From positions 1-34,568 of the forward strand of contig RBNJ01000272.1 in assembly GCA_003990765.1 (NCBI GenBank): a DNA stretch of 34,568 nucleotides. Reading direction: 5' to 3'. Source of the DNA: Jimgerdemannia flammicorona (Eukaryota). The notes beneath the pieces are model-generated. The model was not told the DNA's origin. It saw only the letters and a program-made list of their open reading frames with translations, and did no database searches. Below are positions 1 through 32,400 of the stretch, in pieces (the first letter of the stretch is position 1; every line of letters begins with the position of its first letter). The position numbers and the translations under genes were made by a program.

Positions 1-15
1 AAAAAAAAAAAAAAG
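1..15 (+). mobile_element. Poly(A) tail, probably the 3' end of another LINE (LINE C) inserted into LINE A; body lies outside the window
   Basis: A15 abuts GGCTTCTGGTGG (G-F-W-W), which is internal LINE ORF2 sequence (compare AAAGGATTTTGGTGG at ~5953-5967 in LINE B). Confidence 0.55.
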
Positions 16-2441: not shown

Positions 2442-3159
2442 GTGGGCTCCCCTCTCTACCCCTCTCATCAGGCATGGCCTGGCTTCCCAGAATAAGGTGG
2501 TAGAAGATGTGCCAATGCGAGGAGCCCAGAGGGTACAATTCGGAGTTCCAGAGGTGGCATATGGGGGACAGGTGGTGGCGGCTGGCGAGGAGGAACTGGT
2601 GGATGTCCCGGAAGTATGGGATGAGTCTGCAAGTACTGGAGCTGACACCACAATGTTGGATGGAGGGAGGCTGGCGACTCCAGGGGGGAAAGAGGTGGGG
2701 AATTTGCTTTGGATGTACTGGATGATGAATAACCTGGTGGCGGAAGAGTTGGGGGAAGTGGACTTGCAAGTGATGAGTGATAAGCATTGGGCAGGGATAC
2801 TGCAGGGGGATGGTGTAATGAAGGCATTAAAGGCAGAAATTCTTGCAGTGTACCTAGAGGAGGAAGGGTATGAGATAGATAAGGAAAGGGAGGAGGAGAT
2901 AGTGGTCATTGCTGGAGAAAGGGCTGAATACTGCTGGAACAAGCATCATGGACTATAGCTCTGGCAGGAGGTGTACATCGAATACTGAGAGGAGTTTGAG
3001 GAGAAGGCTGATGGAGAGATGAATGAACTGCTGGCTGGATTGGAGGCTCAGAGAGCAGAAGAGGAGGAGGTGGCTGCAGAACATAATTTGGACAGGGCAC
3101 AGAAAGAGATGAATATGGAGCAGTAGAGGCTGATTGACGACATCATATATATCATCAAT

Positions 3160-6100: not shown

Positions 6101-6816
6101 GTGATGGAATGGAATACCAAAGGGGACCAGGCCAGAATCTGTGGTCTAGTGGTTGGCAAGGAGTTGGAATTGGTGAAGAGTGGAACTGGCATGGTGTTTG
6201 GACCTGGAGTGCTGCAGTGAGAGCGTGGCTGCCACCAAAGTACTGGGTGGTCTGGTAGCGCATGCTGCAGAGGAACATTATGCTCAACTTTTGCTCAGGG
6301 CACCTTGTTGTAGGGGGTTGCTTCGACTGTGAGGAGTGCTATGATATAGGGCAGGAGGGGGGTTATGTACAGATGCCAGAACATTGGCTAGGAGAGTGTG
6401 AGGTGTTGGGGGATTTTTGGCAGACAATTGGGGACCACTTAGGAGTACGGAGTAGGGGTGATGAAGTATGGGGGCGGTGGGAGGACTTGAGGGATAGATT
6501 GGTAGGGGAGATAGGGAAGGAGTGGCTTACTTTAGGTTGGGCTTTGGCTATTTGGGTGGGGCTGGCCAGTCATTGGCTATTTGTTTTTGAGAATGGGAGG
6601 AGGCAGAGTTTGGGAGACTGGCTGCTGCGATGGCATAGGCTTATAGAAGACACCTTAACAGGCTGGTGGCTGGGTTGGGGGATGCGGGGTGGTCGGAGGC
6701 ACCACTTGGTGGAGAAAATCTATGGGCAAAGTGGGGGGAGAGTTGGGGTAGTTGGTGAAAGGGTGATTTTCATTTGTGAGAAAGTAGGGAGGGGCCCCCT
6801 TGTGGGGATTGGATAG
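3160..6816 (+). pseudogene. LINE B ORF2: AP endonuclease, reverse transcriptase and C-terminal Cys/His motif (~1218 codons, possibly extended upstream to ~2515)
   Basis: One frame throughout. APE motifs SLNVNGL, LLQD, GGDFN, TRIDW, SDH. RT motifs APGEDGLP, EQRGFV, DQEKAYD, GVPQGDPLSPILY, FADD, YLG. C-terminal CEEC...EHWLGEC. Confidence 0.93.
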
Positions 6817-7395
6817 TGGGTCAGAATGATGTATATTTACTCATAGACTGGTAATAAAGGCAGAGTCCACATGACTATAAAAAAAAAGGCCTATCTAATG
6901 ATACCAAGAACATTGAAATCAGATCATGCGTTGCTGAACCCATCTGAATCGCCGATTTTGGAAATTCTTTGATTTGCCGATTTTGGAAATTTCATCAAAT
7001 AGAACATTTTCCTTAATATCTTGGCAACGTGTAATCCGATTTTAATGTTCTTGATATCATTAGAAAGGCCTTATTAAGGGCTTTCAAATGACACTAAGAT
7101 CATCAAATTTGGATGATTATTCATCGAGTTATGGATGTAAACATTTAATTGTCCAATTTGGAAATCAAAACAATGGTTGATTCGAATCCATCCAGATGGG
7201 ATTCGAATCCATCCGAATTCCATCCAGATTGACTCGTTCGGAGCACTAATCAGAATAGAGAGTTTCCTTTGTAAGAGATAGAGGAAGATGAGTCCTATGT
7301 GAGATAGGATAGGAGGATACTGTATTATTATATTATAGATAAGAAGAATAATAAATGACAAAGTTCAAGAGACTATAAAAAAAAAAAAAAAAAAA

Positions 7396-10400: not shown

Positions 10401-10742
10401 TATTAGATATACTTATGCTGTCAGTACTTATTCTAAGTCTCATTCCTCTTATACTACTTAGCTGGCTCATATTTGATATGTTGCTAGTATTGACTGATAT
10501 TATAGTATAATATAGCATATGTGTTAGAGATATATTTATTATCTACTTTTACTAGTAGAGCTTATAATATTTTATTGTAGAATACTTAGAAGAGTAGAGA
10601 GAAAAAATTGAAAAAAGATAGTATTATTTATTGATACTAACTTATGTGCTTTTATGTATATTGATGATATTTATATAATAACATAGTCAGGATCAGACTG
10701 AACTACTATATGTCAAGTTATTATAACTAAGATATTTCAATA
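7430..10742 (-). mobile_element. Heavily decayed Ty1/Copia LTR retrotransposon (5' LTR, gag, PR, IN, start of RT), cut in RT by LINE A
   Basis: Minus-strand translations in Copia order: gag-like FDSKDY..MKNLLEEYSL (~10270-10350), PR IDSS (~9421-9432), IN EQNGIVECFNQIIVEMA..LPHSFWAKVVN (~8435-8545), RT ENNT*NLV..IYKIKYNSNGDIE*YK (~7570-7685) and YQIDVKIA (7430-7455). Confidence 0.85.
10573..10742 (-). repeat. Probable 5' LTR of the Copia element
   Basis: Bounded by TATTG...CAATA (decayed TGTTG...CAACA). Adjacent AGAGCTTATAAT resembles the reverse complement of the GGTTATGAGCCC seen next to many fungal Copia 5' LTRs. G2 sequence starts immediately at 10743. Confidence 0.55.
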
Positions 10743-10915
10743 CTTATAATGTGATCATTGTACATTACTCTGAAAAAACCAATGCCAATATAAATGCCCT
10801 CTCACAGATACCTCAAAGGACTCTCAATCAATAAACCAATTATGAATAAAGAGCTCTACTACAGAATTATCACCTATCTGAGACAGTAAAAGATACTCCA
10901 ATATCTGAAAGAATA

Positions 10916-11318
10916 TGTAATGGTTCTAGTTTCTAAATGAGGAAGTGACTAATTCTGGTAGTTCTAAGTAGCTCAAAGAGATACTAAGGATTCAAGTGTT
11001 CTCAAAGGATTTCTGAGAGAAAATATTCTGAGGCTTTATTCATGAGAACAAAGGGGATATTTATACAAGATCTGAAAGAAGGATCAGGAAGGATCTGAGA
11101 AATCAAAGGAAAATGCCAAGAGGAAAGTTCTCAGCAAAGATGACAAATAATGGCAAATAAAGTTCTACAAGTTTCCAGGACAATCAGTGACTAACTAAAT
11201 AAGTACTAGAGGATGCTCGGCACCAAGAAAGGATTTCTAAGCATTCAGAAAGTACCAGAAGATTGTAGAATATTAAAGAAAGACAAAGAAAAGAAATAAA
11301 CTATGCTAAAATACTACA
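10916..11318 (-). repeat. Chromovirus 3' LTR
   Basis: TGTAA...CTACA termini; direct repeat of 16562-16964; adjacent to PPT. Confidence 0.95.
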
Positions 11319-11631
11319 TCTCCTCCTCCTTAAGAATCAATATCCTTATTGAATTCTCAAAGTTACACATAATAAACAATAAGACTAAAAGAAACTTCAA
11401 ATTAAATATATCGACTCATTGGTAAGGATTGGTCATCCTTGTATAAGGTGAGGGCCAAAGTATCATCTTGATCAGATGAGAACTGGTTCGAACCTCGTTG
11501 GTTGCAGGATTTATAGGGTTCTCCTGTATCTCTTGCTTCTAATGCTGTATTCCTTAGAGAGCCCCAATGTGTAATGTGCCTGATCAGTACAGTAGGTCAT
11601 CTACTATCCAAGAGGAGAACCTCACAGGCAG

Positions 11632-14600
11632 TCAATGAGTTTCTTTTTGCTTGAACTCTTGGATGAGGTCTTGGGAGTTCTTGAGATTGGTGGCAGGTTC
11701 CCAGGTAGTATCATATTCAGAGTAACTTATCTACTTGACTAGGTATTCTGTGCAATGGTATCAGACTCGTTTGTCTAAGATTTTCTTGACTTCATACTCA
11801 ATATGGTCTTCAATTATGACTGGTGCTAATAGTGTCAGAATTTGACCAGGGTATGGGGGTGACTGGTTCCAGGCCTTGAGTTGTGACACATAGAATACTG
11901 GATGTATATGCATGGTTGTTGGCAAGTTGAGACAGTAAGACCAGGTAGAGACTTGCTCAGTAATCTTGAAGGGTCCAAGGTACTTGGGCTGGAATTTGGC
12001 TGACTAGCAGTTGACTTGAGATTGAGCCTTAATGTTGTCAGCTTTGAGTAGAACCATATCACCAATATTGTATATGACATCTCACTGCTTCTTATCTGCA
12101 TACTTAGCTTGATGTTGCTGAGCCTTTTGCAAGTTTGTAGTGGTGATCTTGAGAAGAGAATCCATTTTGTTGATAAGGTTCTGGGCTGTGGGGACTTGAG
12201 TGTGACTGGATTGCTGGAATTGGACTAGACTTGCAGGGATCTCAGGGTTTTGACCATAAAGTAGCTGAAATGGGGAAAGACCAGTTGATGATTGGTTGGC
12301 ATTATTGTAGGTGAACTCAGTGTAGATCAGATAGTGGTCTCAATCATCTTGCTTATAAGACACATAGTTTCTGAGTATTTGTTCAAGTATTCTGTTCATT
12401 CACTCTGTCTGTCTATCAGTTTGAGGATGAAAGACAGTGGATATAGCAATTTGAGTTTCAAGGGTCTTGAAGAGTGCTTGCCAGAAGTAACTTGTGAACT
12501 TGGGGTCACAGTCGCTGATAATTACTTGGGGAAGTCCATAATGGTGGAAGACAGTCTTGAAGAAGATTCTTGCAATTTCTGGGGCAGTGGTATTAGTTGT
12601 GGTTGGCTCAGCAATTATAATCTTAGTGAGATGGTCTACAAATACAACAAAAGCATCATAGCCTGTTTTGGTTCATATGTAGGAGTTGCACAATAAAGTC
12701 TATTGTGACTTGTTCGAACTTCTTGGTCAGAATTGACAAGGGTTGTAGAAGACTGACAGGTGCTTGATTGCTTGACTTATTTCTTTGGCAAAGATCGCAG
12801 CTTTGGACATACTCTTTGATTTCCTTGAGCATGTTTGGCCAATAGTAGTCTCGTTGGATATTCTTGATGGTCTTCTCAGTTCCAAGGTGGCCAGCTAGTG
12901 GAGAGTCATGATGTTCACAAAGAATCTTGTACCATAGTTCAGGGTTGGTAGGAATATATACTTTGTCTTGATAGTACACAAGATTGTCCTTCATGATGTA
13001 CTTTTCCTTGAATTCCTTGGTATTCCTTTGTAGAACCAGAGAGTCTTGTTTGTATGCCTTCTTGATCTAGTTGAGGAATTCAGGTGCCACAGTGACTTGT
13101 AAGATCACAGCAAGGTCAGATCTCCTTGAAAGTGTATCTGGTACAACTAGAGTTTTGCCAGGCTTGTAGATGATGTTTGGGGTAAAGGTCTGAAGTAGTT
13201 GGCTCCACTTGGCTTGTTGGCGAGAGAGGGTTGGTTGAGTGTTGATGTACTGAAGAGATCTATGATCAGTGATCATATCAAACTCAACTCCTTCTAGATA
13301 GTATTGCTAGATCTTGAGGGCATGTATGATTGCTAGGAGTTCCTTTTCATGAGTAGCTAGCTTTTGTTCTGCTGGGGACAATTTTCTTGACTCAAAGGCA
13401 ATAGGTCAGTGTCCTTGACCATCATCTTGAGAAATGACTGCACCAATGACAAAGTTAGATACATCTGTAATAACTGTGAACTTCAAGTTTGGGTCCATGT
13501 TTCTAAGGACAGGTGCATGGGTCAGATAGTTCTTGAGTTCTTGAAAGGCTTGTTGACAGAAGTCATCCCAGATGTAGGGGACATAGAGGTCAGAGTTGGG
13601 TTCCTTTCACAGGAGATTTGTCAAAGATTCTGCAATGCCAGAGAAGTTCTTGACAAATCAACAGTAGTATTCAGCCAGACCAAGGAAGGACCTAAGTTCA
13701 GTGAGGTTTGCTGGTACAGACCACTGTTCAATAGCTTGTATTTTTCTTGGGTCTACTTGAATTCCTTTGGCTGATACAATGTGTCCAAGGTATTTGACTT
13801 GATCCTTGAAAAATTCACATTTCTTGAGCTTTGCATAGAGCTTGTTCTCGTGGAGGATCTTGAGGACTTGTTTGATGTGCTTGAGGTGTTCTTCTTCAGT
13901 GCTATTGAAGATCAGGATGTCATCAATATATACAAGTACAAAGATATAGAGCTGATCCTTGAAGACAGTTTGCATGAGGTCTTGAAAGGTTGCTGGCACA
14001 TTGGTGAGAACAAAGGCCATAACTAGAAATTTGTAGAGTCTAAAGAGTGTCATGAAGGCAGTCTTGGGTATGTCTTCTGGCTTGATTCGAATTTGGTGAT
14101 ACTCAGAGGTGAGATCAATCTTGGTGAAGTACTTGGCATTCTTGAGAGTATTAAAGATTTGATCTATGAGTGGTAGCAGATAATGGTTCTTGACTGTGAT
14201 CTTGTTGAGTGTACAGTAGTCTATGCACATTCACAGAGTATCATCCTTTTTCTTGACAAATAGGACTGGGGAGCCAAAGGGTGACTTGCTTGGTTGAATG
14301 GCTCCTTGTTCAATGAGTTCATTGAGTTCCTTCTTGACTGCTTCAATTTCAAGTAGAGACATGCGGTACATTTTCTTCTTAGGTATAGCTGTATCAGGTA
14401 CCAACTCGATTTCATGGTCATGATCTCTTGAAGGTGGTAGACCAGGTAGTTTGTCTGGGAAGACATTCTTGTACTTGTTCAGCAGTAACTTGATGCTTTC
14501 ATCAATTGATAGCTTCTTGTCTTCTTTCTTTGATTGGATCAGTACCATAAAGGTACAGGTAGCTTTCTTGAGGGCCTTCTTGAACTGGATTACTGAGAGG

Positions 14601-16483
14601 GTAGCAATTGGGGTTCTCATCTGAGTCTTGTCTGGCTTGATGGTAATGTTGGCTCCATCTTGAATCAAGGTGACTTCATTCTTAGTCCAATCAATCTGAG
14701 GGTTGTGCTGTATAAGCCAGGGTTTGCCTAGGATCAGGTCATGGTCTCCTAGTGGTGCTACCTCGAAATCTAAACATTCCCAATACTTCTGGATCTTGAG
14801 GGGAAGTTTAGCAGCAATTGAGTCAATTGATAAGGTAGTGCTATCTGCAGTGACAACTCTACCATTCTTGCTAGCTGGTTTGGTGAGAATCTTGAGCTTG
14901 TCGATGAGGTTCTTGTTGATGAAGTTCCCAACAGCTCCACTGTCTATGAGAATATCTAGCTCTTGTCCCTTGACTAGACCTTTGAAGATGAGCATTGAGT
15001 TGGTTCAGTTCTTAGCTATACTTGCAACTTTATCAGTACCGCCAAAGCCTTTCTGATCTTGCTTGGTGGCAGATAGCTTGATGACTTCTTTAACAACTGG
15101 TAGGATAGCTTACTTTAGAATGAGTTGTACAATTCTGTCACCTTCATTGATGGTATATGGTTGGTTCTTGTGGTTGACTAGCAGGACTTGCATTTCATCT
15201 CAGAAGTCAGAGTCAATGACTTCAGCACTAACATCTAATGAGTGCTTGAAGCTGAGGCCAGATCTTGGTACAATTCTTGCATAATGTTCCTTGGGGATTT
15301 CGACTAAAAGGTCAGTTGGAATGAGCCTTCTCTCATGTGCTGGAATAGTGACTTGTTGTACTGCTTGAAGGTCCAAACCAATGGCTCCTTCTGACTGTGC
15401 TTGAGGGATCTGGGCCTTGGAGTTAACTTACATGAAATTGAGTATAACTTCTTGTTTGACTGGTTGATCTTGAGTGTCTTTGGACAGAACTAGAATCCTC
15501 TTTGGTTCCATGGTTTTCTTGGGACATTTGGTTGCAATGTGACCAGGCTGATAGCAAAAGAAGCAGGCTCTAGCCTTCTTGAGGTGCTCCTTTTTCTTGG
15601 GTGTAAGCTTGCCTTTCTTGCTCTTGTTGATGGTATCTAGGTCCATGGGGGCAGGTCCAACAGTTCTGACTTTGGGTTCCTCCCTTCTGTGGTTGTTGTT
15701 GTTGTTGTTGAAAGGTGGTCTCTTCTGTTCAAAGCAGTGACCATAAGTGATGACATCAAATCTATCAGCAATTTTTATTGCTATATCTAGGTCCTTGGGT
15801 TCTTCTAGTTCAACACAAACTCGGGTTTGACCTTTCAGGCCTTGGATGTACTTGTTGACCTTCTCGTCTTCAGTGATATATGGTAATTCTAGCAGAATTG
15901 ACAGGAATTGTGCATTGTATGCTTGCACAGACTTAAGTTGTTTGACATTTGCCAGACGGTCTCATGCAGCCTTGGTGCTGTTGACTGGTTTGAATTGGTC
16001 TTAAATAGCATCAGAGAATTTACCCCAGGTCTTGATTTGGCCAGAAAATCTGGTATTCTGGACATGATTTCACCACCAGATTGCAGTATTCCCTCGGAGG
16101 AGTATAGCAGCAAATTGGACTAGTGTTGTTTCTTCCAAATTTATCAGTTCTCTATATTGCTTCAATTGGAAAAGCCAGGCATCAGTAGACAGTCCTCCTC
16201 TTTGACCATTAAAGGTGTCAGACTTCTGAGGCTTGATAGTGACTACTGTCAGATATATTGATATTGGTAGGGGTGTGAAGGTATGAGTGGGGGCCTTGCT
16301 TTCCTTTCTTTCTATGCATTCTTAAAGTTGAGCAATCTGAGCTAATGTGGTCTGCAAAAGACTCTCAATGGCCCCATTTAACTGAGTAGGGTTTTGCTAT
16401 TCCTCTTCTTCTTGCTGATTGTACTGATTGTATGAGGTATTATCTGAACTATAGGTATGTACTATATGAAGGGTTCCACCCAT
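11632..16483 (-). pseudogene. Chromovirus gag-pol polyprotein with many transition-derived stops
   Basis: ATG at 16483 is in frame with ORFs 15928, 14995, 14230, 13276 and 12994. Motifs: CFFCYQPGHIATKC, ILIDSGA, YIDD, HHDSPLAGH..CDLC. Chromodomain EYEVKKILDKRV..EYLVK*..YDTTWEPATNLKNSQDLIQEF at ~11650-11800 is in a shifted frame. Confidence 0.92.
15035..15440 (-). other. dUTPase domain within chromovirus polyprotein, between zinc knuckle and protease
   Basis: In-frame read-through gives KAQIPQAQSEGAIGLDL..IPTDLLVEIPKEHYARIVPRSGLS..EVIDSDF*DEMQVLLVNH..INEGDRIVQLIL..QKGFGGT, i.e. all five trimeric dUTPase motifs. Confidence 0.9.
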
Positions 16484-16561
16484 TGTCCTTTATAGTATTA
16501 TAACTGATATCTTGAGAAGTGTCTTGATAAGGCTAGGTGTAACTTCACCACTGCTACTAAG

Positions 16562-16964
16562 TGTAATATTTCTAGTTTCTAAATAAGAAAGTGACTAATT
16601 CTGGTAGTCCTAAGTAGCTTAAAGAGATACTAAGGATTCAAGTGTTCTCGAAGGATTTCTGAGAGAAAATATTCTGAGGCTTTATTCATGAGAACAAAGG
16701 GGATATTTATACAAGATCTGAAAGAAGGATCTGGAAAGATCTGAGAAATCAAAGGAAAATGCCAAGAGGAAAGTTCTCAGCAAAGATGACAAATGATGAC
16801 AAATAAAGTTCTACAAGTTTCCAGGATAATCAGTGACTAACTAAATAAGTACTAGAGGATGCTCAGCACTAAGAAAGGTTTTCTAAGCATTCAGAAAGTA
16901 TCAGAAGATTGTAGAATATTGAAGAAAGACAAAGAAAAGAAATAAACTATGCTAAAATATTATA
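16562..16964 (-). repeat. Chromovirus 5' LTR
   Basis: Direct repeat of 10916-11318; adjacent to PBS and gag start. Confidence 0.95.
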
Positions 16965-17539
16965 GAATAGATATAAATAATTATCAATAGAATATGGAAA
17001 TAATTTAAAACTAATAGAGAGATACTAAAGAAAGAAAACTACTAGTCATATCTAAATACAAAAAGGAGTAAGTAATGAAATCAGTATATAAACTTAGCTA
17101 TCTAAAAGGAATAAATATCTATGATAAAGCAAGAAGAAAATATAGTAGCCAGAAATAGAGAAAGATATCAAATAATTTGTCAAGACCTATAATAAATACT
17201 AAAAATAGAAATAAGATTAATGAAATCAGACTTCAGAATTGATATACATAGAACTAATACTCTTTGCATATATTATAATAGATATAATTGGCTTTCTATT
17301 CTTAACTTTAATTAATAACTATGTAATACATTATTATCATTATAGACCTTTTTACAAAATAGATAGAGATAGGATCTCTCAAAGAAGTCAATATATAGTC
17401 AATTGTAATATATTTTTTTATTTTAAATAAAGCTTAGAATATTTTTTTCTAAAAATCTTTAAATTTATAGTATCTCTTTAAGTTACTTAGACTTACTAAA
17501 ATCTTTTAAATTTAATTACTTTCCTTAAAAAAATGAAAA

Positions 17540-18439: not shown

Positions 18440-19840
18440 ATGACAATGGAGAAGAAAATGCCCAAGATAGGCACAGATCTACAAACTATACTTGAACCAA
18501 ATCCTTCGTGCCCGCGACTTCCCCCCGAGATCCTGTACCACATCTTCAGCTACTTTGACCTATCCTCTCCAGAAAACACCGACGGCGTCTTCGACCTGAT
18601 GGCGGCCTCCATGGTCTGTCGCGAATGGTGTGAAGTCGCTCGTCCCATGATAACAGATGAACACATAGAAGAATCTCAGTTTATGGACGAGGAAATTGAT
18701 GATAAATTCCCTGAAAACCTTCAGCGGTTTGCCTCGTTGCTTTCCACATCGAAAATTCTCGGCATGAACTACTGCACCAAGGTCAACATCGTCATAATTG
18801 CGATTAACGAATTCCTGGGGAGTCCTCAATGCGTTGACGACGCCAGAACTCTAACCAATCTGCCCACCAAGCCCGAGGACCACGATGCCCTATTTACCAT
18901 CCTCGCCCTCACTACGCCAACGCAACTCATCGTCCAAATCGACAAACCCGCAGGATATGCGCCTGACCGCCTCCACGCACGCGAACAGTTCCTCTCTAGG
19001 CTGGCCCCACACTTCGGTGTCCACGCGCTGACGCTCCATCTTCCCCGCGATGAGCAGCCCCCGGACCCACAATTTGCCAGCCTCGTTCACGTAGCGCGCG
19101 CCTCCTTGAGTAAGGTTACCCTCCTGGGCAGGCCTGATCCCATGACGCGGGACGCACTTTCCCTGTGCGTCGATGTCCGGACCGCGAGCATCTTCAACGG
19201 TCACGCCCCGACCACCGACTCCATCCTGAAAGGCTGGCGCGCCCTCCGCAGCATCAATCTGCTCTGGCCGGCCGGACGGGTCGTAGAAACCGTCTCGGGG
19301 ATGGGTGACACGCTAGGCGACGCGCTGGAGGACATCTACGTCATAGGGAGCCCGATCATGGAGGAGGCGGAAGCAGCCGAAGTCGCGGGGGTGCTGGAGG
19401 CCGTCGTGTCGCGCTGCGCTCGACTCGAGAGGCTGTACGCCGGCGCGTCCGAGTTTCCCACGATGTCGTTCAACTATATCAATGACGGGGTCTTGCGGGC
19501 CATGGCACGGAATTGTAAAGAAATTAGACTATTGGATCTCGCGCCCGGCCTCGGGCTCACGGCCGCGGGCATCTGGGATGATGAAACGGCGCCGCAATGG
19601 CCGAAGTTGAGGTGCTTGAACGTGTGGAACGAGCAGGTCGTGCCCGAATTTGTGGAGCGGGTGGTTTTAGGGTGCGGTGCGCTGGAAGAGGTGTATATGG
19701 TGACGGAGGTGAGCGAAGATCCGGGTGTGATGAGGGCGATCGAGCAGCGCGGGTTTGAATGGGTCTGTGATCGTCTCTGGCGTAGGCCAGCCAGCGATTC
19801 GAGTGTGGTGGAAAGGGAGGAGGCTCGAATAGCGACATAG
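18440..19840 (+). CDS. F-box domain protein with LRR/RNI-like C-terminus (466 aa, single exon; start could be 18440, 18446 or 18458)
   Basis: F-box signature RLPPEILYHIFSYF...LMAASMVCREWCEVA. LRR-like segments (CARLERLY, NCKEIRLLDL, WPKLRCLNV, CGALEEVY). Intact ORF with CpGs retained. Confidence 0.88.
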   Translation: MTMEKKMPKIGTDLQTILEPNPSCPRLPPEILYHIFSYFDLSSPENTDGVFDLMAASMVCREWCEVARPMITDEHIEESQFMDEEIDDKFPENLQRFASLLSTSKILGMNYCTKVNIVIIAINEFLGSPQCVDDARTLTNLPTKPEDHDALFTILALTTPTQLIVQIDKPAGYAPDRLHAREQFLSRLAPHFGVHALTLHLPRDEQPPDPQFASLVHVARASLSKVTLLGRPDPMTRDALSLCVDVRTASIFNGHAPTTDSILKGWRALRSINLLWPAGRVVETVSGMGDTLGDALEDIYVIGSPIMEEAEAAEVAGVLEAVVSRCARLERLYAGASEFPTMSFNYINDGVLRAMARNCKEIRLLDLAPGLGLTAAGIWDDETAPQWPKLRCLNVWNEQVVPEFVERVVLGCGALEEVYMVTEVSEDPGVMRAIEQRGFEWVCDRLWRRPASDSSVVEREEARIAT

Positions 19841-20430
19841 ATTGAGATTTAATTTGATCAGATTGGAATCTGGCACGAGGTAGAAAGAAAATGTTGATCG
19901 TGGGGCTAGAGGAAGCGAGTCGCGGCCTTGCGCTGGTGATTACAGAGATGGAGAGAAGGTTCGCGTAGTATATCAGGAAAAGGTCGCGAGGAAGAGCGAT
20001 AAAATGGATAGGGTTACGTTTGCAATTAGAGAATTTGTGTGTACAATCTAGTTTCGTTGAGTTCCGGGACATAATCAAATAATCACATTTTTGGTCGGCT
20101 CAAAGGGTAAGTGCGAACCGTATTACCATAAAAAGAGGGAGGCAAATGAAGAGACAGAACATGAAATAAAATGAAATAAAAATAAAAACCAGGAGATAGA
20201 AGACGAAGGCAAAAACAAGAAGTTCCGTCATGGCAAAATTAAAGATGCTTATACTACGTTAGCAGAGTCAACATTGGGGTTGCTCAAACTTGCAAAATCC
20301 CTGAATTTACGACCATACTATGAACAGCCCCACATACGTCACAAGCGTCCTGCAAGCCAACCAACATAACGTCCAGGGTGGCCACGAACAACGTTCCAAT
20401 TCTCGTCGTTGACAGCCTCCTGACGGGCAA

Positions 20431-21171: not shown

Positions 21172-21640
21172 CGCTTTCGTTGCCAAAGTTATTTACAATT
21201 TGCCGAGAGTGGCGCGCTGCCACAGTGTGGAGTTCTCAGTTATCGCTTAATGCAATACTGGTACATATAATTCAATGTGGTATAATTAAACTGCCTTACC
21301 CTGCACTGCGGATCTGTGCCATGCGCCCCGTGCACCAAGCCTGCTATTTTTGGCCGCGCTCCGCCCGATCCTTGCTGGGTCCCTGGACCCCTCGGGGCGC
21401 ACCGCGTGCATTCCACTCCCCGAACGCTCTTGTTTTGATGGCTTCCCGTACAAGGTAACCAAACATTAGGTAATTTTATATTTAGAAGTTTCGCCAAAAA
21501 TCTTATAAGCCCTGAACAATTCTCTCGGAAATTACTTGTTACTCTGGTAAATAGTTTTAAGAAATAATTTTTTAAAAATTATAATTACAATTTCAGACAT
21601 CCTTTATATCTAGCACAAGAATAATAAATACCATTACTAT

Positions 21641-22099
21641 TGTGACGGTATAGCCAGATTTGGAAGAAGGAAATAGGGAACAGACATTTGATCGCACCCA
21701 GTCCCAAAGTAGTATAGTCACATAGTTAGCAGTCCTTGATTTCACCACTTGCTAAATATTTTGCAAAGTGCAAGATGGAGCTTCTCGATATAGTATAGCA
21801 TTTTGCAACTGGCAAAATATTTTGCAAAGTGTTAAATGACTCATAACCTAGTTATATAACTCATCTCATAGCTAGCAAACTTGTTAAATAACCCAGTATC
21901 TTCAAGTGAATAAACCTCAGATCGAAATAGTTCAAAGCAAAGAGATAGCAAAGGAACTAGTAAGCCTGTGGGCAGATATACTTTGAACTCACCCACTCTC
22001 CTCTGCAACTTCAAGAGACTCTGCAAGAGTCAGAATAGTCAAGTTTTCAAGATACAGAAATCTGATGTACTTTCAAGAGTAAGCATCCACTATGTTACA
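21641..22099 (+). repeat. G2 5' LTR
   Basis: TGTGA...TTACA termini; direct repeat of 27881-28340. Confidence 0.95.
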
Positions 22100-22199
22100 A
22101 CTTGGTGCACATTGGCTGGTGATTCAAGATGAATCCCTCACTTTCAAGCTGAACAACAAACAACTGCCACTACCCGAACAACCATACAAACTGAGCCCC

Positions 22200-25100
22200 A
22201 ATACCCAGACAAGATGGATATGAGACTGTCAGTATTTTATGGATATATCTTAGATAAATCAATCATCACCTTCATTGATGATTTTGAGCAGTATGCCACT
22301 GTAAGGGCCCTGACAGCAGCACAGCAAGTAGCCCTCATGCCCTTCAGCCTATGAGGTCCTGCCAGAGCAGCATTTACAGCCACAACCCATGCAGGAAATG
22401 ATGCCAATGCTATACTGACAGTACAGAAGACCTGGCTCCAAAATACATATTATACGGACAAGATCAAGCAAGCTCTGAAGGATCAGCTCAATACAATATA
22501 CCAAGGAATGAGTGAGGATCCAAACACATTCTATACCAGAATTCGATATTAGATAATCCTTGCAGATTATGCTGCTGCTATCTGAGATCAAGTAGTCAAA
22601 GCAATCTTCATGAAAGGAGTCTATCCAGAAATAGCCATGGCTATCTGCTCATCACTAGTGATTCTGGATCTGCTACAGAAGGTCACCTATGCTCAGCGAT
22701 ACTGGATAGCCAGACATCCACAAGACCATACAATAGAAAGAGTTACAGGAGTCAAAATCAAAGCACCCAAGGCAACCAGTGTGATCTCTACCACAATGAT
22801 CAATCAAAACACACCTCAGCCAAAAGCTACAGAGCAGCAAAAGAACAGTGACCCTATGGAGGAACTCGCCAAAAGGTTTGCCAAAATGACTGCCCACCTG
22901 GGAGATATGGTAAAGGAAATTTGAGAAAGAGACCGCCACCCTGTCCAGAAGTTTGCTGCCATCTCAGATAAGAAGAAAGGCACCTGCTATACTTGCAGAG
23001 AAGAAGGCCACTACTCCTATGAATATATGAGTGAAACCAAGCACAAGGCTCAACCAAACAATGCTATATGAAACAAGGAGCAGGCCAATACAATTACCTT
23101 CGAGGAAATTGGAGATTCTGATGAAGAAGAATAGGAGGCCTATCCTGCTCAGACTACCAAGAAGGATGTTTGCAAGGAACCCTACAAGAGACCACCAGGA
23201 AGACCCAAGAAGAACCTAGTAGAAAAGCAGATGGAAATGGCTACCGAAAGCCAAGCTGAAGAGATGGACCAAGATATGGAGCTGGAGTAAGCAGTTCAAG
23301 ATATCATCCAAGGAATCACTCCAGCCAGTAAAGGAGAAAAAGAAAAGAAGCTTTGCAAGACCAAGACCTTTAAGTATGATATCTTCAAGAACCTCAGTCA
23401 ACAAAAGGTCAATACAACCTTTGGTCAGCTCGCAGAAATCCCAACATTCAGACAGCAAATAAGGTTTGAACTTGCTGAAACAACTAAGAAACAAGGATGG
23501 AAGATAACTGAGGCCAATAATGTTCAAGAGGACTCAGGAGAAGAAAGTGAGGACAATCGCAAAACCTCTGCTTATGCAACATACCAAATTAAAGATAGAA
23601 TCTTTGAAGCCATTATTGATATGGGAGCAGGAGGATGTCTCCTCAGCAAGAAGACAGCAGACCGCCTAGATTGAGATGTGGAAGAAGCAACTAAGCTGGG
23701 TTTGTCACAGCTGATGGCACAAGAGCCACACCTCTGGGAAAGATCCAAGATGTTCCCATCAAGATTGGAGGAGTAACCATCCCAGTAGATGTAATTGTAA
23801 CCAATGCCACTAACTATGACATCCTCATCAGCAATCAATGGCTTCATAAAGCCAAGGCAGTAATTGATCTCAATGCCCAGAAGATATAGAATCACCTATC
23901 AGGGACAGAAGATATGAATTCCCATCAATGTCAACAAAGGAGTCCTATCTGATATGGAGGAAGAAGAGAGTGAGCAAGAGGAAGCTTATATGGTGACTAC
24001 TCCAAAGAAGAAGAAAGTTGGATGGATAAGTAAAGAAGAATAGTGCAAGAAGATCACAGAAGGTTATGCTCTACAAGGAGTCTGTCCTCATGGGATCAAG
24101 ATGTACTATATGGAGCATGTCAATGATTGCTACCAGTGTACCATCAGAATCAAGAAGATCTACCAGGAAAGAAGGCAGAAAGCTCTTGAAAAACAGATCA
24201 GGGAAGAAGAGAAGGAGGAAGATGACAAACCACCAGCCCTCCTGGAAGACAGTAATGATGAAGAAGAAATCAAGGTCAAGATTCAAAAGATCCACCCTGA
24301 TGCAGTCTTGCCAGAATACAAGTCAGAAAATACAGCTAGAATGGACATCGCTACAGTAGAAGAGACTGTACTGGAACCCCAGACAACTACCCTACTTGCA
24401 ACTGGACTGGAGATGACCATCCCAAAGGATCATATCAGGATTCTCAAGACAAGAAGCAGCCTGGCTAAAAGCGAAATCACAATCGAAGGAGGAGTCATCG
24501 ATTCAGACTATACTGGAGAAATTCTACTCATTGCTAGGAATCACAATCCTACAATCCCATTTCTAGTCAAGAAGAAGGACTGGTTGGCACAAATGTTGAT
24601 CTTTCTGATCCTACAACTAAAGATCATAGAAGTTAAGAAGCTGGAGGAAATGCAAAGAGAAAAGAAAGGATTTGGATCCACAGAAAGAGGAGTATTCGCT
24701 AGCACCAAGATCACTGAACTCGAGCATAAGAAGGAGGAAAACACAAGCAAGCACAGCTATACCATCAGAAACAAATTTCCACTCAAGAAAGAACTCAAGA
24801 AAATACTCTACAAATTTGAAGATGTCCTTATCATAGATTTCAAGGATATCAAAGGAAAGACCCCACACTACTATCATAAAGTAGATACTGGAAACACCGA
24901 ACCAATTTATCAGAAGGCAAGACCTGTCCTGCCAGCCTACCGAGAATGACTCAGAGAAGAAATCAAGCAGATGGAAGAAGCCGGCATTATTAAGGAAGCC
25001 AGCAGCCCCTGGGCCTCACCTATTGTACTAGCCCCGAAAAAGGGCAGCAAGTCTGAAGAATTTGCCCCAAGACTCTGTGTTGACTATAGAAAGCTCAACA

Positions 25101-26191
25101 TGGTTACCAAAAAGGATCACCAACTACTGCCCCTCATCAATGATATCCTCATAATACTGGGAGATGAAGCATAGTACTATAGTACTTTGGACTTATACTC
25201 AGGATTCCACCAAATCGGACTCACAGACATGACAAGTGAAAAGTCAGCTTTCATCACCCCAGATGGAACCTATGTCTACCTATAAATACCATTTGGAATA
25301 TGCAATGCACCAGCAAGTTTCCAGCAAATGATGAATAAAATCTTCTACTATGACATGGGAAGATGGATGATGGTCTATATTGATGATGTAATCATCTATA
25401 GCCAGACACCAGAAGAACACCTGTAGCATATCTGGCAGATAATGGAAAGACTGAGAAAGCATGGCCTATACATTAAGCCCAAAAAATGCAAATTTGCAGA
25501 AATCAAGATCTCTTATCTCAGCCACATCATCAACCAAGATGGAACACACATGGACCCCCTCAAGATACAAGCAGTGGCAATATACTCAAGACCCACTACT
25601 GTTACAGAAGCCCAAGCCTTCATGGGACTTGCCTCCTATTATTGCAGATTTATTAGAGGATTTTCTAATATTGCAGGACCAATCTACAAACTTAACAAGA
25701 AGGATACTAAGTTCCAGTAGACTGGCAGACAACAAAAAGCATTTGATGAACTCAAGGTCAGACTGACCCAGGCACCCATCCTCAGAAGACCTGACTGGAC
25801 TCAAGAATTCATTCTACAGACTGATACAAGTACACAAGGACTAGGAGCAGTCCTAGTTCAAAAGAAAGATAAAGTGGAGTATGTCATTGCATACCTCAGC
25901 CGCGGAACCCAAGGAGCTGAAAAAGAATATGAATCCTACAAGTTGGAATGCCTCACAGTCATCTGGGTCATAGAAAAGTTCCACTACTACTTGGCTGGAA
26001 GACACTTCACCATCCAAATGGACCACTCAGCTCTCACCTGGCTACTGACAACCAGACAACCCAAAGGAATCTATGCCAGATGGATAATGAAGTTGCAAAC
26101 TTATGATGTAACCATTGTACACTGCTCTGGAAGAACCAATGTCAATGCAGATGCCCTCTCACAGACACCCCGAACTACCTCCAACCAATAA
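22200..26191 (+). pseudogene. G2 gag-pol (gag, CCHC, PR, dUTPase, RT, RNase H), ending at TAA 26189-26191; start approximate
   Basis: Zinc knuckle CYTCREEGHYSYEY (22985); PR AIIDMGAG (23618); RT SPWASPIVL, RLCVDYRKLN, DLYSGFHQI, YIDD; RH TDTS..GLGAVL..VIAYLSR..LECL..DHSAL..NVNADALS. Mostly one frame, with local indels near 23700 and 23890. Confidence 0.92.
24269..24685 (+). other. dUTPase domain in G2 pol, between protease and RT
   Basis: KIHPDAVLPEYKSENTARMDI, TGLEMTIP, KTRSSLA, GGVIDSDYTGEI, KDWLAQMLI, REKKGFGST. Confidence 0.92.
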
Positions 26192-26198
26192 ATTAATT

Positions 26199-27392
26199 AT
26201 GAATAAGGAGCTCTACTATGGAATTATCACATACCTGGGACAGTGAAAGATGCCCCAACATCTGGAAGAATGGATACAAATAATTATCAACAGAATATGG
26301 AAACAATTTGAAACTGATGGAGAAACACTGAAGAAAGAAAAACTACTAGTCATACCAGAACACAAGAAGGAGCAAGTGATGAAATCAGTATATGAACTTG
26401 GCCATCTAGGAGGAATAAATACATATGACAAGGCAAGAAGAACAATATGGTGATCAGGGATGGAGGAAGATATCAGACAATTTGTCAAGACCTGTGACAA
26501 ATGCCAGAAATAGAAATAAGACCAACGAAATCGAGCCCCAGAATCAGCACACATAGAACCAGTACTATTCGCCCACATTGTAATAAATGTAATCAGCCCT
26601 CTACCCTTGACTTTGACTGGCAACCGATACATCATCATCATCGTAGACCTTTTTACAAAATGGATAGAAGCAGGACCCCTTATGGAAGCCAATGTACAGT
26701 CAATCACTGATTTCTTCTACAAAGAAATCATCTGCCAATTCAAGACCCCAATGCAAGTAACAACAGATAGAGGAACAGAATTTGTGAACCAGTTCTTCAA
26801 AGTTCTCTATAAGAAGTACAAGATCCAGTATATTTGGACCACAGCATATCACTCTCAAGGAAACAGACAAGTAGAAAGGACCAACAAGACCCTCAAGAAT
26901 ATTATTGCTAAGATCTGTGATAACTATGAAAACTGGGATCACTATCTGCCAATAGCATTATCCGCTCTTCGGGATATCTGATCACAAAGTACCCACTTTA
27001 CCCCTCAAGAAATGCTGTTCAGAGAAGAATGTTCTCAGAGAACCCTATCATCCAATGGAGATGCTATATGGAAACATGTGGATATGGAAATATGGAGACT
27101 ATACCAAATCAGGAAGAAGGCTGAGGATTACATAACTAAGGCGCAGACACTACAATAGAGAAATGCAGAAAAGACCCACAAACTCTTGGAGATTATCAAG
27201 ATAGAAGACAAAGTCCTAGTGTATCGGAATATGGTAGAAGCTTCATGGTCACGAAAACTAGAGCCCAAGTGGGAAGGACCTTACCTTGTACAAGATATAA
27301 AAGGGACTACCTTTTGGCTACGAAAACTCTCAGGTACAATAATCCCCACTACTATTCACCGAAACTGACTCAAGAAATATCATAGCTAGTAA
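26199..27392 (+). pseudogene. G2 integrase encoded as its own ORF (+1 frame relative to RT-RH)
   Basis: ATG 7 nt after the RH stop. LGHLGG..CDKC zinc finger; VDLFTKW, TTDRGTEF, VERTN core; WEGPY motif; no chromodomain. Confidence 0.88.
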
Positions 27393-27405
27393 CAAAAGTA
27401 CTGCG

Positions 27406-27843
27406 ATGGCACTCAAGATTACTAGTGCTGCCCAAAGGGCCATCAAGAGACAATGGTACACCACTGAGCCTCCGACCATAGAGGAGTCTTATGACAGTAT
27501 CTAAAGTATCATGTAGACTCATCTCTCTTGGATCTCACACTTCAAGGCCTATCAGCATCGAAACGAATTTCAAGAGTACTTCAAACTTAGCCAAGTACTC
27601 AACCAAGACCCAGAAATGACTAAAGAAAATTGGATCATAGAATGCCAGCTCTCTTATTCCCAGATCACCATTGCTAAGAGAATCTATAAGCTATTCCGAG
27701 AGGATGAACCAGCACTAGCCCACCTGCAAGGAGTGACTCCCTCAGACTTCAACTGAGTCAGATGATACCATTGGGAAACAGTAATGCAACAAATCGCACA
27801 ATACAAGACCATACAGACCATTGAAGTCTGGGAGTTTGAATAG
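27406..27843 (+). pseudogene. G2 ORF3, unknown protein (116-145 aa) between integrase and PPT
   Basis: MALKITSAAQRAIKRQWYTTEPPTIEESYDSI(Q)SIM(Q)THLS...EVWEFE*. Same 438-nt length in the second copy (30420-29983), where most stops are sense codons. Confidence 0.7.
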
Positions 27844-27880
27844 ATGCTTTAAGGATGAGATCATCTATTCAGAAGGAAGT

Positions 27881-28340
27881 TGTGATAGTATAGCTAGATT
27901 TGGAAGAAGGAAATAGGGAATAGACACTTGATTGCACCCAGTCCCAAAGTAGTATAGCCACATAGTTAGCAGTCCTCGATTTCGCCACTTGCTAAATATT
28001 TTGCAAAGTGCGAGATTGAGCTTCTCGATATAGTATAGCATTTTGCAACTGGCAAAATATTTCGCAAAGTATTAAATGACTCATAACCTAGCCATGTAAC
28101 TCATCTCATAGCTAGCAAACTTGTATAAATAACCCAGTATCTTCGAGTGAATAAATCTTAGATTGAAATAGTTCAAAGCAAAAAGATAGCAAAGAAACTA
28201 GTAAGCCTGTAGGCAGATACACTTTGAACTCACCCACCCTCCTCTGCAACTTCAAGAGACTCTGTGAGAGTCAGAACAGTCAAGTTTACAAGATATAGAA
28301 ATCTGACATACTTTCAAGAGTAAGCATCTGCTATGTTATA
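27881..28340 (+). repeat. G2 3' LTR
   Basis: Direct repeat of 21641-22099, preceded by PPT. Confidence 0.95.
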
Positions 28341-29192: not shown

Positions 29193-29453
29193 TAGTGCTC
29201 TCAACAAATTGAATCAAAGATTCAATTTAATTCAAAATTTAATTTAAATTCTATTTTTTGAAATATAATAACTTGACAAAAATATGTCCAAATTTAATAA
29301 GCTAAAGATTATTAAATTTGGATGTATTTTTATTGAGTTATTATATTTCTAAAAATAGAGTTCAAATCAGACTTTCAATTTGATTTAAATTTGATTTTAT
29401 TCAGACTTAATTCAAATTGAAAAATCTCTAATTTGATTTGTTTGGAAGTACTA
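29193..29453. mobile_element. hAT-family MITE (~260 bp, palindromic)
   Basis: Termini TAGTGCTCTCAACAAAT / ATTTGTTTGGAAGTACTA; internal inverted symmetry; flanks ATATGTAA and ATATAT (right TSD cut by the LTR at 29460). Confidence 0.7.
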
Positions 29454-29459
29454 ATATAT

Positions 29460-32400
29460 TGTAACATAGTGGATGCTTACTCTTGAAAGTACATTGGATT
29501 TCTGTATCTTAAAAACTTAACTATTCTGACTCTCGCAGAGTCTCTTGAAGTTGCAGGGGGAGTGGGTGAGTTCGAAGTATATCTGCCTGTAGGCTTACTA
29601 GTTTCTTTGCTATCTCTTTGCTTTGAACAATTTTGATCTGAGGTTTATTCACTCGAAGATACTGAGTTATTTATACAAGTTTTGCTAGCTATGAGATGGT
29701 TACTGGGTTATATGGCTAAGTTATGAGTCATTTAACACTTTGTGAAATATTTTGCCAGTTGCGAAATATTTCACCAGTTGTGAAATACTATATTATATCA
29801 AGAAGCTTGATCTCACACTTTGTGAAATATTTAGCAAGTGGCAAAATCAAGGACTGCTTACTATATGGTTATACTACTTTAAGACTGGGTGCGATCAAGT
29901 ATCTATTCCCTATTTCCTTCTTCTGAATCTGGCTATACTGTCACAACTTCCTCCTGAATAGATGACCTTATCCTTGAAGTATCTATTCAAACTCCCAGGC
30001 TTCAATGGTCTGTATGGTCTTATATTGTGCAATTTGTTGCATTACTATTTCCCAATGGTGTCGCCTGACTCAGTTGAAGTCTGAGGGAGTCACTTCTTGC
30101 AGGTGGACTAGTACTGGTTCATTCTCTCAGAATAGCTTGTGGATTCTCTTAGCAATGATGATCTGGGAATAGGAGAGCTGGCATTCTGCAATCCAATTTT
30201 CTTTGGTCATTTCTGGGTCTTAGTTGAGTACTTGGCTAAGTTTGAAGTACTCTTGAAATTTGTTTTAATGCTGATAGGCCTTGAAGTGTAAGATCTGAGA
30301 GAGATGAGTCTGCATAATGCTTTGGATACTATCATAAGACTCCTCTATGGTCAGAGGCTCAGTGGTGCACCATTATCTCTCAATGGCCCTTTGGGCAGTG
30401 CTAGTGATCTTGAGTGTCATCACAGTACTTTTGTTACTGGCCATGATATTTCTTGAGTTGGTTTCGGTGAATGGTGGTGGAGATTATTGTACCTGAGGGT
30501 TTTCATAGCCAAAAGGTAGTTCCTTTTATATCTTGCACCAGGTAAGGTCCTTCCCACTTGGGCTCCAGTTTTCATGACCATGAAGCTTCTACCATATTCT
30601 GATATACTAGGACTTTGTCTCCTATCTTGATAATCTCTAAGGATTTGTGGGTCTTTTCCACATTCCTCCATTGTAGTGTCTGCACCTTGGTTATGTAATC
30701 CTCAGTCTTCTTTCTGATTTGGTGTAATCTTCATATTTCTATATCCACATGTTTCCATACAGTATCTCTATTAGATGATAAGATTCCTTGAGAACATTCT
30801 TCTCTGAACAGCATTTCTCAAGGGGTAAAGTGGGTACTTTGTGATCGGATATCCTGGAGAGTGGATAATGCTATTGGCAGATAGTGATCCCAGTTTTCAT
30901 AGTTATTATAGATCTTAGTGATAATATTCTTGAGGGTCTTATTGGTCCTTTCTGCTTATCTATTTCCTTATAGGTGATAGGCTGTGGTCTGAATGTGCTA
31001 GATCTTGTACTTCTTGTAGAGAACCTCAAAGAGCTGGTTCACAAATTCTGTTCCTCTATCTGTAGTTACTTGTGTTGGGGTCTTGAACTGGCAGATGATT
31101 TCCTTATAGAAGAAATCAGCGATTGACTGTGCATTGGCTTCCTTGAGGGGTTCTGCTTCTATCCACTTCGTAAAAAGGTCTACGATGATAATGATATATC
31201 GGTTACCAGTCAGGGTCAAGGGTAGAGGGCTGATTACATCCATTGCTATGTGGGCAAATGGTACTGGTTCTATGTGTGCTGATCCTGGGGCCTGGTTTTG
31301 TTGGTCTTGTTTCTGTTTCTGGCATTTGTCACAGGTCTTGATGAATTGTCTGATATCTTCCTCTATCCCTGGCCACCATATTGTTCTTCTTGCCTTATCA
31401 TATGTATTTGTTCCTCCTAGATGGCCAAGTTTGTATACTGATTTCATTGCTTGCTCCTTCTTGTGTTCTGGTATAACTAGTAGTTTTCCTTTCTTCAGTG
31501 TTTCTCCATCAGTTTCGAATTGTTTCCATGTTTTGTTGATAATCATTTGTGTCCATTCTTCCAGATATTGGGGCATCTTTTGCTGTCCCAGTTATGTGAT
31601 AATTCCATAGTAGAGCTCCTTATTCATGATTAATTTGTAGTTTGGAATATCTGTGAGAGGGTATCTACATTGGCATTGGTTCTTCCAGGGTAGTGTACAA
31701 TGGTTACATCATAAGCTTGCAACTTCATTATCCATCTGGTATAGATTCCTTTGGGTTGTCTGGTTGTCAGTAGCTAGGTGAGAGCTGAGTGGTTTGTTTG
31801 GATGGTGAAGTGTCTTCCAGCCAAGTAGTAGTGGAACTTTTCTATGACCCAGATATCTGCAAGGCATTCCAACTTGTAGGATTCATATTCTTTTTCAGCT
31901 CCTCAGATTCCATGGCTGAGGTATGCGATGATGTATGTACTCTACTTTATCTTTCTTTTGAACTAGGACTGCTCCTAGTCCTTGTATACTTGCATCAGTC
32001 TGTAGGATGAATTCTTGAGTCCAGTCAGGTCTTCTGAGGATGGGTGCCTGGGTCAGTCTGACCTTGAGTTCATCAAATGCTTTTTGTTGTCTGCTAGTCC
32101 ACTGGAACTTGGTATTCTTCTTATTAAGTTCATAGATTGGTTCTGCAATATTAGAAAATCCTCTAATAAATCTGTGATAATAGGAGGCAAGTCCCATGAA
32201 GGCTTGGGCTTCTGTAATAGTGGTGGGTCTTGGGTATGCTGCAACTGCTTGTATCTTGAGGGGGTCTGTGTGTGTTCCATCTCGGTTGATGATATGGCTG
32301 AGATAGAAGATCTTAATTTCTGTGAATTTGCATTTTTTGGGCTTGATGTATAGGCCATGCTTTCTCAGTCTTTCCATTATCTGCCAGATGTACTGCAGGT

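Follow-up and report, generated by a model that had tools for sequence, protein, structure and literature searches.

A probable third gene between integrase and 3′ long terminal repeat in a dUTPase-bearing Ty3/Gypsy element of Jimgerdemannia flammicorona

We analysed a stretch of 34,568 nucleotides (nt) from Jimgerdemannia flammicorona (contig RBNJ01000272.1, in the following called the window), in which self-BLAST and Pfam identify two copies, A and B, of a Ty3/Gypsy long terminal repeat (LTR) retrotransposon designated G2. A preceding reading of the sequence alone had proposed a hidden third open reading frame (ORF3) between the integrase gene and the 3′ LTR of this element, which it described as carrying a dUTPase and an integrase in a separate frame. 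This proposal is borne out: intact homologues exist, an independent locus found among metagenome contigs (L001) has the same layout, and the ratio of nonsynonymous to synonymous divergence (dN/dS, omega) is about 0.11. Because a low omega, an open frame and a shared layout coincide, we regard ORF3 as a selected gene. In the segments 27382–27843 (plus strand) and 30444–29983 (minus strand), a genuine third gene of a chromodomain-less, dUTPase-bearing Ty3/Gypsy lineage is very probably preserved as two dead copies.

Selection was assessed by comparing the window, in its inferred pre-deamination state, with L001 by the method of Nei and Gojobori (NG86). The two sequences align without any indel from 24610 to 27840, and the first indel follows directly past the ORF3 stop codon. 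Within ORF3 they share 72% nucleotide identity, and their differences are distributed over the three codon positions as 32/22/75 (chi-square p 1e-8). The proportions of nonsynonymous (pN) and synonymous differences (pS) are 0.17 and 0.69, yielding an omega of 0.106, next to 0.072 for the reverse transcriptase-RNase H region (RT-RH; pS 0.71) and 0.105 for the integrase (IN; pS 0.48). Two shifted frames of the ORF3 region, which served as control, gave 1.20 and 1.76. Both halves of ORF3 are constrained, and the 28 codons past an internal TGA that is shared by both copies show a pN of 0.13 and a pS of 0.89. The value of omega should be taken as rough, while its contrast with the shifted frames appears robust. 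The sequence-only reading had named frequent frameshifts or a dN/dS near 1 as signs against a gene; what we found was an indel-free comparison with L001 and an omega close to that of the integrase. Judged from these sequences, purifying selection between two diverged sublineages appears to act on ORF3 no less strongly than on reverse transcriptase and integrase. Since selection on it seems equal to that on pol, the element would need the ORF3 protein to propagate.

The frame had previously been read from an ATG at 27406, placed 13 nt past the integrase stop codon TAA (27390–27392), to a TAG at 27841–27843. These coordinates agree with ours; the TAG lies 27 nt ahead of a purine tract at 27871–27879, and over this stretch both copies are 438 nt long with no indel (the equivalent in copy B runs from 30420 to 29983 on the minus strand). 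The start, however, has to be moved eight codons upstream to 27382, which is an ATG in copy B and, through a G>A change, an ATA in copy A. This start is used by L001 and by all eight database relatives that have an N-terminus, and it overlaps the integrase stop by 11 nt. The product is accordingly 153 amino acids (aa) long, as in the intact relatives P0005 and L001, instead of the 116 or 145 aa suggested before. The internal stops of the two copies had been described as complementary. This is correct for TAA 27502 and TAG 27514 of copy A, where copy B has CAA and CAG, and for codons 16, 52, 67 and 98 of copy B, which are sense codons in copy A, but a fourth internal stop of copy A, TGA 27763 (CGA in copy B), had been overlooked. 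The TGA at 27754 is indeed common to both copies. Because this site is occupied by R, L, Y, H or Q in the relatives, the frame continues past 27754, and the shared TGA is most simply seen as a CGA that was mutated in both copies. When C or G is chosen wherever copies A and B differ by a transition, one stop is left in the ORF3 frame (27343–27840), compared with 5–13 in the other five frames.

Relatives were sought among 1.84 billion representative proteins with a profile built from both window copies, in which stops were entered as X. At E≤0.001 it returned four matches, three of them relatives (P0001, E 1e-57; P0002, 8e-46; P0003, 5e-13). The fourth, a 550-aa repeat protein (P0004, E 8e-6), covers only profile positions 59–87 (29 positions) and was judged unrelated. 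A word-index search with a five-row profile gave 12 matches at E≤0.01 among 266 candidates. P0005 is intact, with 153 aa whose first and last residues are those of 27382–27840; it terminates, like the L001 protein, in WEFE followed by the stop codon, and the two intact versions are 72% identical to each other. P0009 begins at an internal Met and has the same C-terminus as P0005. With tblastn, P0005 matched copy A at 27382–27840 (80% identity, E 1e-81) and copy B at 30444–29986 (74% identity), and no ORF3 paralogue was found elsewhere in the window or in L001. There is no gap in any of the 14–15 aligned ORF3 rows.

L001 is the single locus confirmed among 52 pattern matches in a scan of Joint Genome Institute (JGI) metagenome contigs. 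It contains one 1274-aa ORF encoding gag (with CCHC motif), protease (PR), dUTPase and RT-RH, an integrase that lies in the +1 frame and contains two stops, and an intact ORF3 at 5001–5462, directly after which come a purine tract and the beginning of an LTR, resembling those of the window. In copies A and B and in L001 alike, ORF3 thus occupies the place of an accessory ORF between the integrase and the polypurine tract (PPT) with the 3′ LTR. The corresponding scans yielded 197 pattern matches in viral_contigs and 20 in prokaryote genome_contigs, none of them confirmed, and megablast found no match in the phage collection. In these searches, no relatives of the ORF3 family were detected beyond its own element lineage. 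Contigs from two sequencing runs with small shares (0.07 and 0.05) include many related pieces 80–95% alike, and the only long joint among them is LTR-to-LTR, from 22066 to 28308. Their depth is lower over 27464–27911, to which we attach no reading. Inside the LTR of L001, tandem repeats of an 18-nt unit occupy positions 5610–5685.

Both ORF3 copies in the window are dead pseudogenes, inactivated by C>T/G>A changes at CpA and CpG. Over 3766 aligned columns (3.7 kb), 332 transitions and 17 transversions separate the two copies, with six indel runs, none of which falls between 26190 and 28037. Within 27382–27843 all 44 differences are transitions and none is a transversion. Mutated cytosines amount to 142/566 in CpA (25%), 38/156 in CpG (24%), 52/397 in CpC (13%) and 21/535 in CpT context (4%), a pattern that points to decay resembling repeat-induced point mutation (RIP) or driven by methylation. 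Comparing dN/dS between copies, the check suggested by the sequence-only reading, was of use for one pair only: the window against L001 gave the low value reported above, while the 0.35 obtained for ORF3 between A and B is uninformative, because their ORF3 differences are all transitions and the LTRs of copy A are 7.6% divergent. Most of the A/B divergence probably arose after insertion.

The protein itself, represented by P0005, has a mass of 18.1 kDa, an isoelectric point (pI) of 6.8, a grand average of hydropathy (GRAVY) of -0.58 and a maximum 19-residue Kyte-Doolittle hydropathy of 0.19. Its earlier characterization as hydrophilic and helical-looking fits these values and an AlphaFold2 model computed with a 14-row alignment, which consists of seven helices throughout; the conclusion that it is not an env protein likewise agrees with the lack of any transmembrane or hydrophobic segment. 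The ORF3 product is predicted to be soluble and all-helical, of about 18 kDa and near-neutral pI, and without an enzyme signature. Pfam returned no family at E≤10 for six ORF3 versions, neither Chromo (PF00385) nor SH3_Tf2-1 (PF24626), and the same tool detects both of these domains in a neighbouring element; the suspicion that ORF3 is merely a detached known integrase C-terminal domain is thereby not supported. A sequence search of the PDB gave a best E of 0.33, and Foldseek found no PDB match at E≤0.001. In the Atlas, only unnamed clusters reached 0.95, and named ones stayed at or below 0.93 with 145–151 common features, fewer than the 170 typical of true family matches. The wide VIA search gave a best Z of 4.8 and none of 5 or above; its top neighbours were Dicer RNase III domains (Z 4.2–4.8), obtained with a model of about 50 in the predicted local distance difference test (pLDDT) and lying under the noise level of the tool for helical models. 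RNase III was rejected as a relative, since hhalign of the ORF3 profile against the Escherichia coli enzyme gave 0.16% probability, with residues 137–197 of 226 aligned, and no Pfam match was obtained. The aligned residues belong, we assume, to the double-stranded RNA-binding part and not to the catalytic domain.

When two copies of P0005 were submitted to complex prediction, the score was 0.49 (runs 0.49, 0.46 and 0.49), against 0.00 for the best of three controls, an outcome that supports binding but falls short of showing it. The runs share at least 61% of their contacts, with a partner pLDDT of at least 66. Of 30 proteins solved as one-chain pairs, 21 attain the mark used for dimers, as against none of 23 solved as single chains; among eukaryotic proteins, 17 of 29 reach it, one of seven without an older solved relative, and 0 of 30 single chains. 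The predicted interface is symmetric and comprises residues 40–94, for instance 58 with 58, 44 with 69/72 and 51 with 62/65. Interface columns are more conserved than the others in 33–115 (mean major-residue frequency 0.89 vs 0.79, permutation p 0.014), and the dimer prediction was made without the alignment. ORF3 is likely to homodimerise, as modelled here, via its most conserved helices.

For the expression of ORF3, the arrangement of frames is of particular interest. RT-RH, integrase and ORF3 lie in three successive +1 frames. The RT-RH/IN junction (window 26108–26193, L001 3727–3812) is flanked by the ADALS[QR] motif and the zinc finger and has no indel, and both sequences carry CCC CGA A in the overlap, which we take to resemble a +1 slip site of the Ty1/Ty3 type. 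A 170-nt stretch of L001 contains no ATG other than that of ORF3, which stands in the context ACCATGG, 44 nt ahead of the integrase stop. These features make it fairly probable that ORF3 is initiated independently, via a subgenomic RNA or by reinitiation after the integrase. The complete element reads gag-PR-dUTPase-RT-RH, integrase in +1, ORF3 again in +1, PPT and 3′ LTR. ORF3 would be translated from its own AUG, either on a 3′-coterminal subgenomic RNA or by termination-reinitiation coupled to the integrase, and its product would act in trans as a non-enzymatic adaptor.

ORF3 could alternatively be a C-terminal extension of the integrase reached by +1 frameshifting, with an IN-ORF3 fusion on some molecules as the analogue of a chromodomain. 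The shift needed is the same as that from RT-RH to integrase, whose junction is kept without an indel, and in copies A and B as well as in L001 no stop interrupts the ORF3 frame over the 13 codons preceding the ATG, back to a conserved stop at 27340, which leaves an overlap of 50–83 nt for the shift. Against this, the ATG is conserved and stands in a strong initiation context, and the IN/ORF3 overlap has no CCC CGA A or other CCC-C-type slippery site such as occurs at the RH/IN junction, by a rule that derives from Ty1/Ty3 and other +1 sites. Longer fused proteins were also absent, with 0 of 7514 candidates, a result of little weight, since frameshift fusions escape gene callers. Taken together, we consider such a fusion rather unlikely. 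As a separate protein, ORF3 may possibly be an integrase-coupled adaptor or tethering factor, a tentative assignment by analogy: it would tether or assemble the integration complex on chromatin, as the fused chromodomain does in sister elements. We favour tethering because of the pol-like selection, the lack of an enzyme signature, the probable dimer and the position, which is that of the SH3-Chromo module in the neighbouring element. The G2 integrase stops after its C-terminal module, whereas in the neighbour integrase, SH3 and Chromo are fused, so that ORF3 occupies the chromodomain position. The roles in targeting or anti-silencing put forward by the sequence-only reading are speculative.

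A doubtful alternative to this tethering function is a regulator of the RNA of the element, acting in export, translation or packaging and made from a subgenomic or spliced mRNA, like Rev or CERV of Cer1 (PMC10309623). ORF3 sits at the 3′ end where such regulators are located, its pol-strength selection would fit an essential trans-acting factor, and the predicted dimer would fit multimerising regulators. Yet the protein shows no arginine-rich or basic patch at its pI of 6.8 and no sequence similarity to anything found, and the related contigs, which are DNA contigs only, contain no splice-like joint. Removal of an intron of 5 kb would also be unusual in fungi. Another function, which we hold to be improbable, is that of a counter-defence protein blunting RNA interference (RNAi), cytosine methylation or RIP-like mutation. 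The host evidently attacks its repeats, judging from the excess of transitions over transversions between the copies, and Dicer RNase III domains head the VIA neighbours of the weak model; their Z values, however, remain below the noise level, and neither hhalign against RNase III nor Pfam lends support. If ORF3 did serve in this way, it would be a small dimeric helical factor whose loss would expose the copies to C>T decay, an equally unlikely scenario. The rest of the probability falls to functions other than these. Finally, the frame might be a chance open stretch in a 3′ untranslated region or the remnant of a known integrase C-terminal domain. In 93 of 5000 mononucleotide shuffles an open run of at least 137 codons appeared in some frame, and no family match was obtained. 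Since shuffled sequences are this often equally open, openness alone is modest evidence and the comparative data have to decide. These consist of the gulf between the omega of ORF3 and of its shifted frames, the excess of third-position changes, the absence of indels until the ORF3 stop, the two intact versions of 153 aa at 72% identity, and the detection of Chromo and SH3_Tf2-1 by the same tool in the neighbour but not in ORF3. They refute chance and remnant alike unless L001 and the database proteins are artefacts, which leaves this explanation with hardly any probability.

Further points weigh against a genuine third gene or against the properties assigned to it here. Selection was estimated from one DNA comparison only, the window pair with L001, in which dS is near saturation (1.9), and the pre-deamination state used for omega is itself inferred. 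The 12 database relatives are known only as predicted proteins and are thus open by ascertainment; 10 of them are partial, from contigs of 515–962 nt. One related contig has a +1 shift at 27559 and a -1 shift at 27564 in ORF3, with the frame restored after two codons. The distance from the ATG to the integrase stop varies, with 8 nt in the window and 41 nt in L001 (overlaps of 11 and 44 nt), which weakens a tight coupling of stop and restart. On the protein side, confidence in the monomer model is low (mean pLDDT 50.3, predicted template modelling score 0.34), searches with Pfam, PDB, Foldseek and VIA yielded no matching family, motif or fold, and the near-neutral pI without a basic patch disfavours direct binding of nucleic acids. 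The dimer is a matter of model confidence only, with a weak calibration for eukaryotic proteins that lack a solved relative.

Extra ORFs downstream of pol are already known, and comparison with them suggests that this ORF3 family is undescribed. Among fungal Gypsy elements, some have a dUTPase between PR and RT, and some are drawn with an additional ORF to which no function is assigned (Novikova et al. 2010, PMC2864245). Like G2, these are fungal Ty3/Gypsy elements, some with dUTPase, that bear an extra ORF. That survey deals with chromodomain-containing elements, whereas G2 has no chromodomain; the extra ORF may or may not belong to the same family. In the Ty3/Gypsy element Cer1 of C. elegans, the CERV protein is made from a spliced mRNA, is phospho-regulated and is required for export of the genomic RNA (PMC10309623). 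CERV is, like ORF3, a non-env accessory protein without a known family, encoded 3′ of pol. No sequence similarity between the two was found. Bdelloid rotifer LTR retrotransposons possess third ORFs that are env-like or encode a GDSL esterase or a DEDDy exonuclease (PMC5408684). These elements resemble G2 in being dUTPase-bearing and retrovirus-like with varied third ORFs after pol; they differ in that their ORF3s are of env or enzyme types, while that of G2 lacks a transmembrane segment and matched no enzyme family. Additional ORFs also occur in plant Ty3/Gypsy lineages, Retand among them (PMC11963269). In these non-chromovirus elements, as in G2, the region that separates pol from the 3′ LTR is long or coding, but they belong to a different kingdom. 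The chromodomain of chromoviruses has the same position as ORF3 directly after the integrase C-terminal module, and a common purpose is conceivable; ORF3 is unlike it in its separate frame, own ATG, length of 153 aa, all-helical prediction and lack of a Pfam Chromo match at E≤10, and is no member of that domain family. The ORF3 of PMC5006619 belongs to DIRS-1 and is irrelevant here, and the truffle Gypsy clades of PMC12581995 serve as context only. Within the literature covered, in part through excerpts and for PMC2864245 by the legend only, we found no description of this ORF3 family.

Annotation of retrotransposons usually ends at gag and pol, and in decayed copies ORF finders miss ORF3. A protein of 153 aa would offer a handle on target choice or RNA handling by chromodomain-less Gypsy elements in fungus-type genomes, and it bears on whether such elements counter repeat-directed silencing. 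The compact +1/+1 overlap of RT-RH, integrase and ORF3 also raises the question of translational control.

Copy A of G2 is complete, with paired LTRs that are 92.4% identical by self-BLAST, an ACTAT/CTAT target-site duplication on both sides and LTR termini TG..CA, with a TA end in the 3′ copy. On the plus strand, the 5′ LTR extends from 21641 to 22097 (self-BLAST match 21640–22097), begins with TGTGACGG and ends in ...GTTACA, as delimited by self-BLAST and reading of the flank. It is followed by the decayed gag (zinc knuckle)-PR-dUTPase-RT-RNase H region (22098–26188), identified by Pfam on read-through frames; the matches appear in the order RVP_2, dUTPase, RVT_1, RT_RNaseH, Integrase_H2C2 and rve, which is the PR-RT-RNase H-IN order of Ty3/Gypsy elements. 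The RT-RH frame is open until 26188, whereas the PR piece (Pfam match at about 23746–23886) is out of frame relative to gag and dUTPase. Related contigs carry a +1 at 23703 and a -1 at 23889, so these two frameshifts are private to copy A. The gag zinc knuckle of copy A (at about 22900–22950) reads C-X2-C-X4-H-X4-Y and its equivalent in L001 is recognized by Pfam as zf-CCHC; the final Cys was probably lost through a G>A transition.

The integrase ORF of copy A (26112–27392, plus strand) is in the +1 frame relative to RT-RH and consists of an H2C2 finger, an rve core and a C-terminal module, with the TAA at 27390–27392. Its frame is open from 26112 to 27389 once transitions are undone, and Pfam finds no chromodomain at its end. 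Synonymous divergence between the window and L001 is low over 26190–27381 of the integrase, with a pS of 0.48 overall and 0.31–0.33 in the last 180 nt, versus 0.71 in RT-RH and 0.69 in ORF3. This may reflect recombination among sublineages or a cis element embedded in the gene, and the last 180 nt give a weak hint of such an element upstream of ORF3. The ORF3 pseudogene of copy A (27382–27843, plus strand) has 153 codons and the TAG, with ATA at the start and internal stops at 27502, 27514, 27754 and 27763. The polypurine tract (AGAAGGAAG, 27871–27879, plus strand), whose function is suggested by its position, abuts the 3′ LTR, and copy B and L001 likewise retain it next to the beginning of the LTR. 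The 3′ LTR of copy A covers 27881–28340 (plus strand; self-BLAST match 27880–28338, with the end determined by reading).

Copy B is inverted and 5′-truncated; it runs from 33209 to 29456 and is aligned to copy A from 24610 onward at 89.5% identity. All its features are on the minus strand. The portion of its integrase that follows an indel of 11 nt in the comparison with copy A lies at 30434–31636, according to the A/B alignment and read-through translation. Its ORF3 pseudogene (29983–30444) has an intact ATG and stops at codons 16, 52, 67, 98 and 117, counted from the ATG equivalent to 27406, and its 3′ LTR was located by self-BLAST at 29459–29946. In the AT-rich spacer separating the inverted copies lies an imperfect palindrome of about 185 nt (29212–29396), which is 79.6% self-complementary.

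A third G2 fragment (10735–10914 and 16964–17403) is interrupted by a different element. The element inserted there is the neighbouring chromovirus (10916–16962, minus strand) with LTRs at 10916–11316 and 16562–16962; it has a dUTPase between gag and PR, and its integrase is fused to SH3_Tf2-1 and Chromo. At positions 1–7000 of the window, four long ORFs without a Pfam match are found, together with a GC content of 41–56% and a very strong GC skew of +0.33 to +0.51 over 7 kb. An intact 466-aa ORF with an N-terminal F-box is located at 18440–19840 on the plus strand, in a region of 46–60% GC (60% over 19001–20000), and is probably a host gene amid the repeats.

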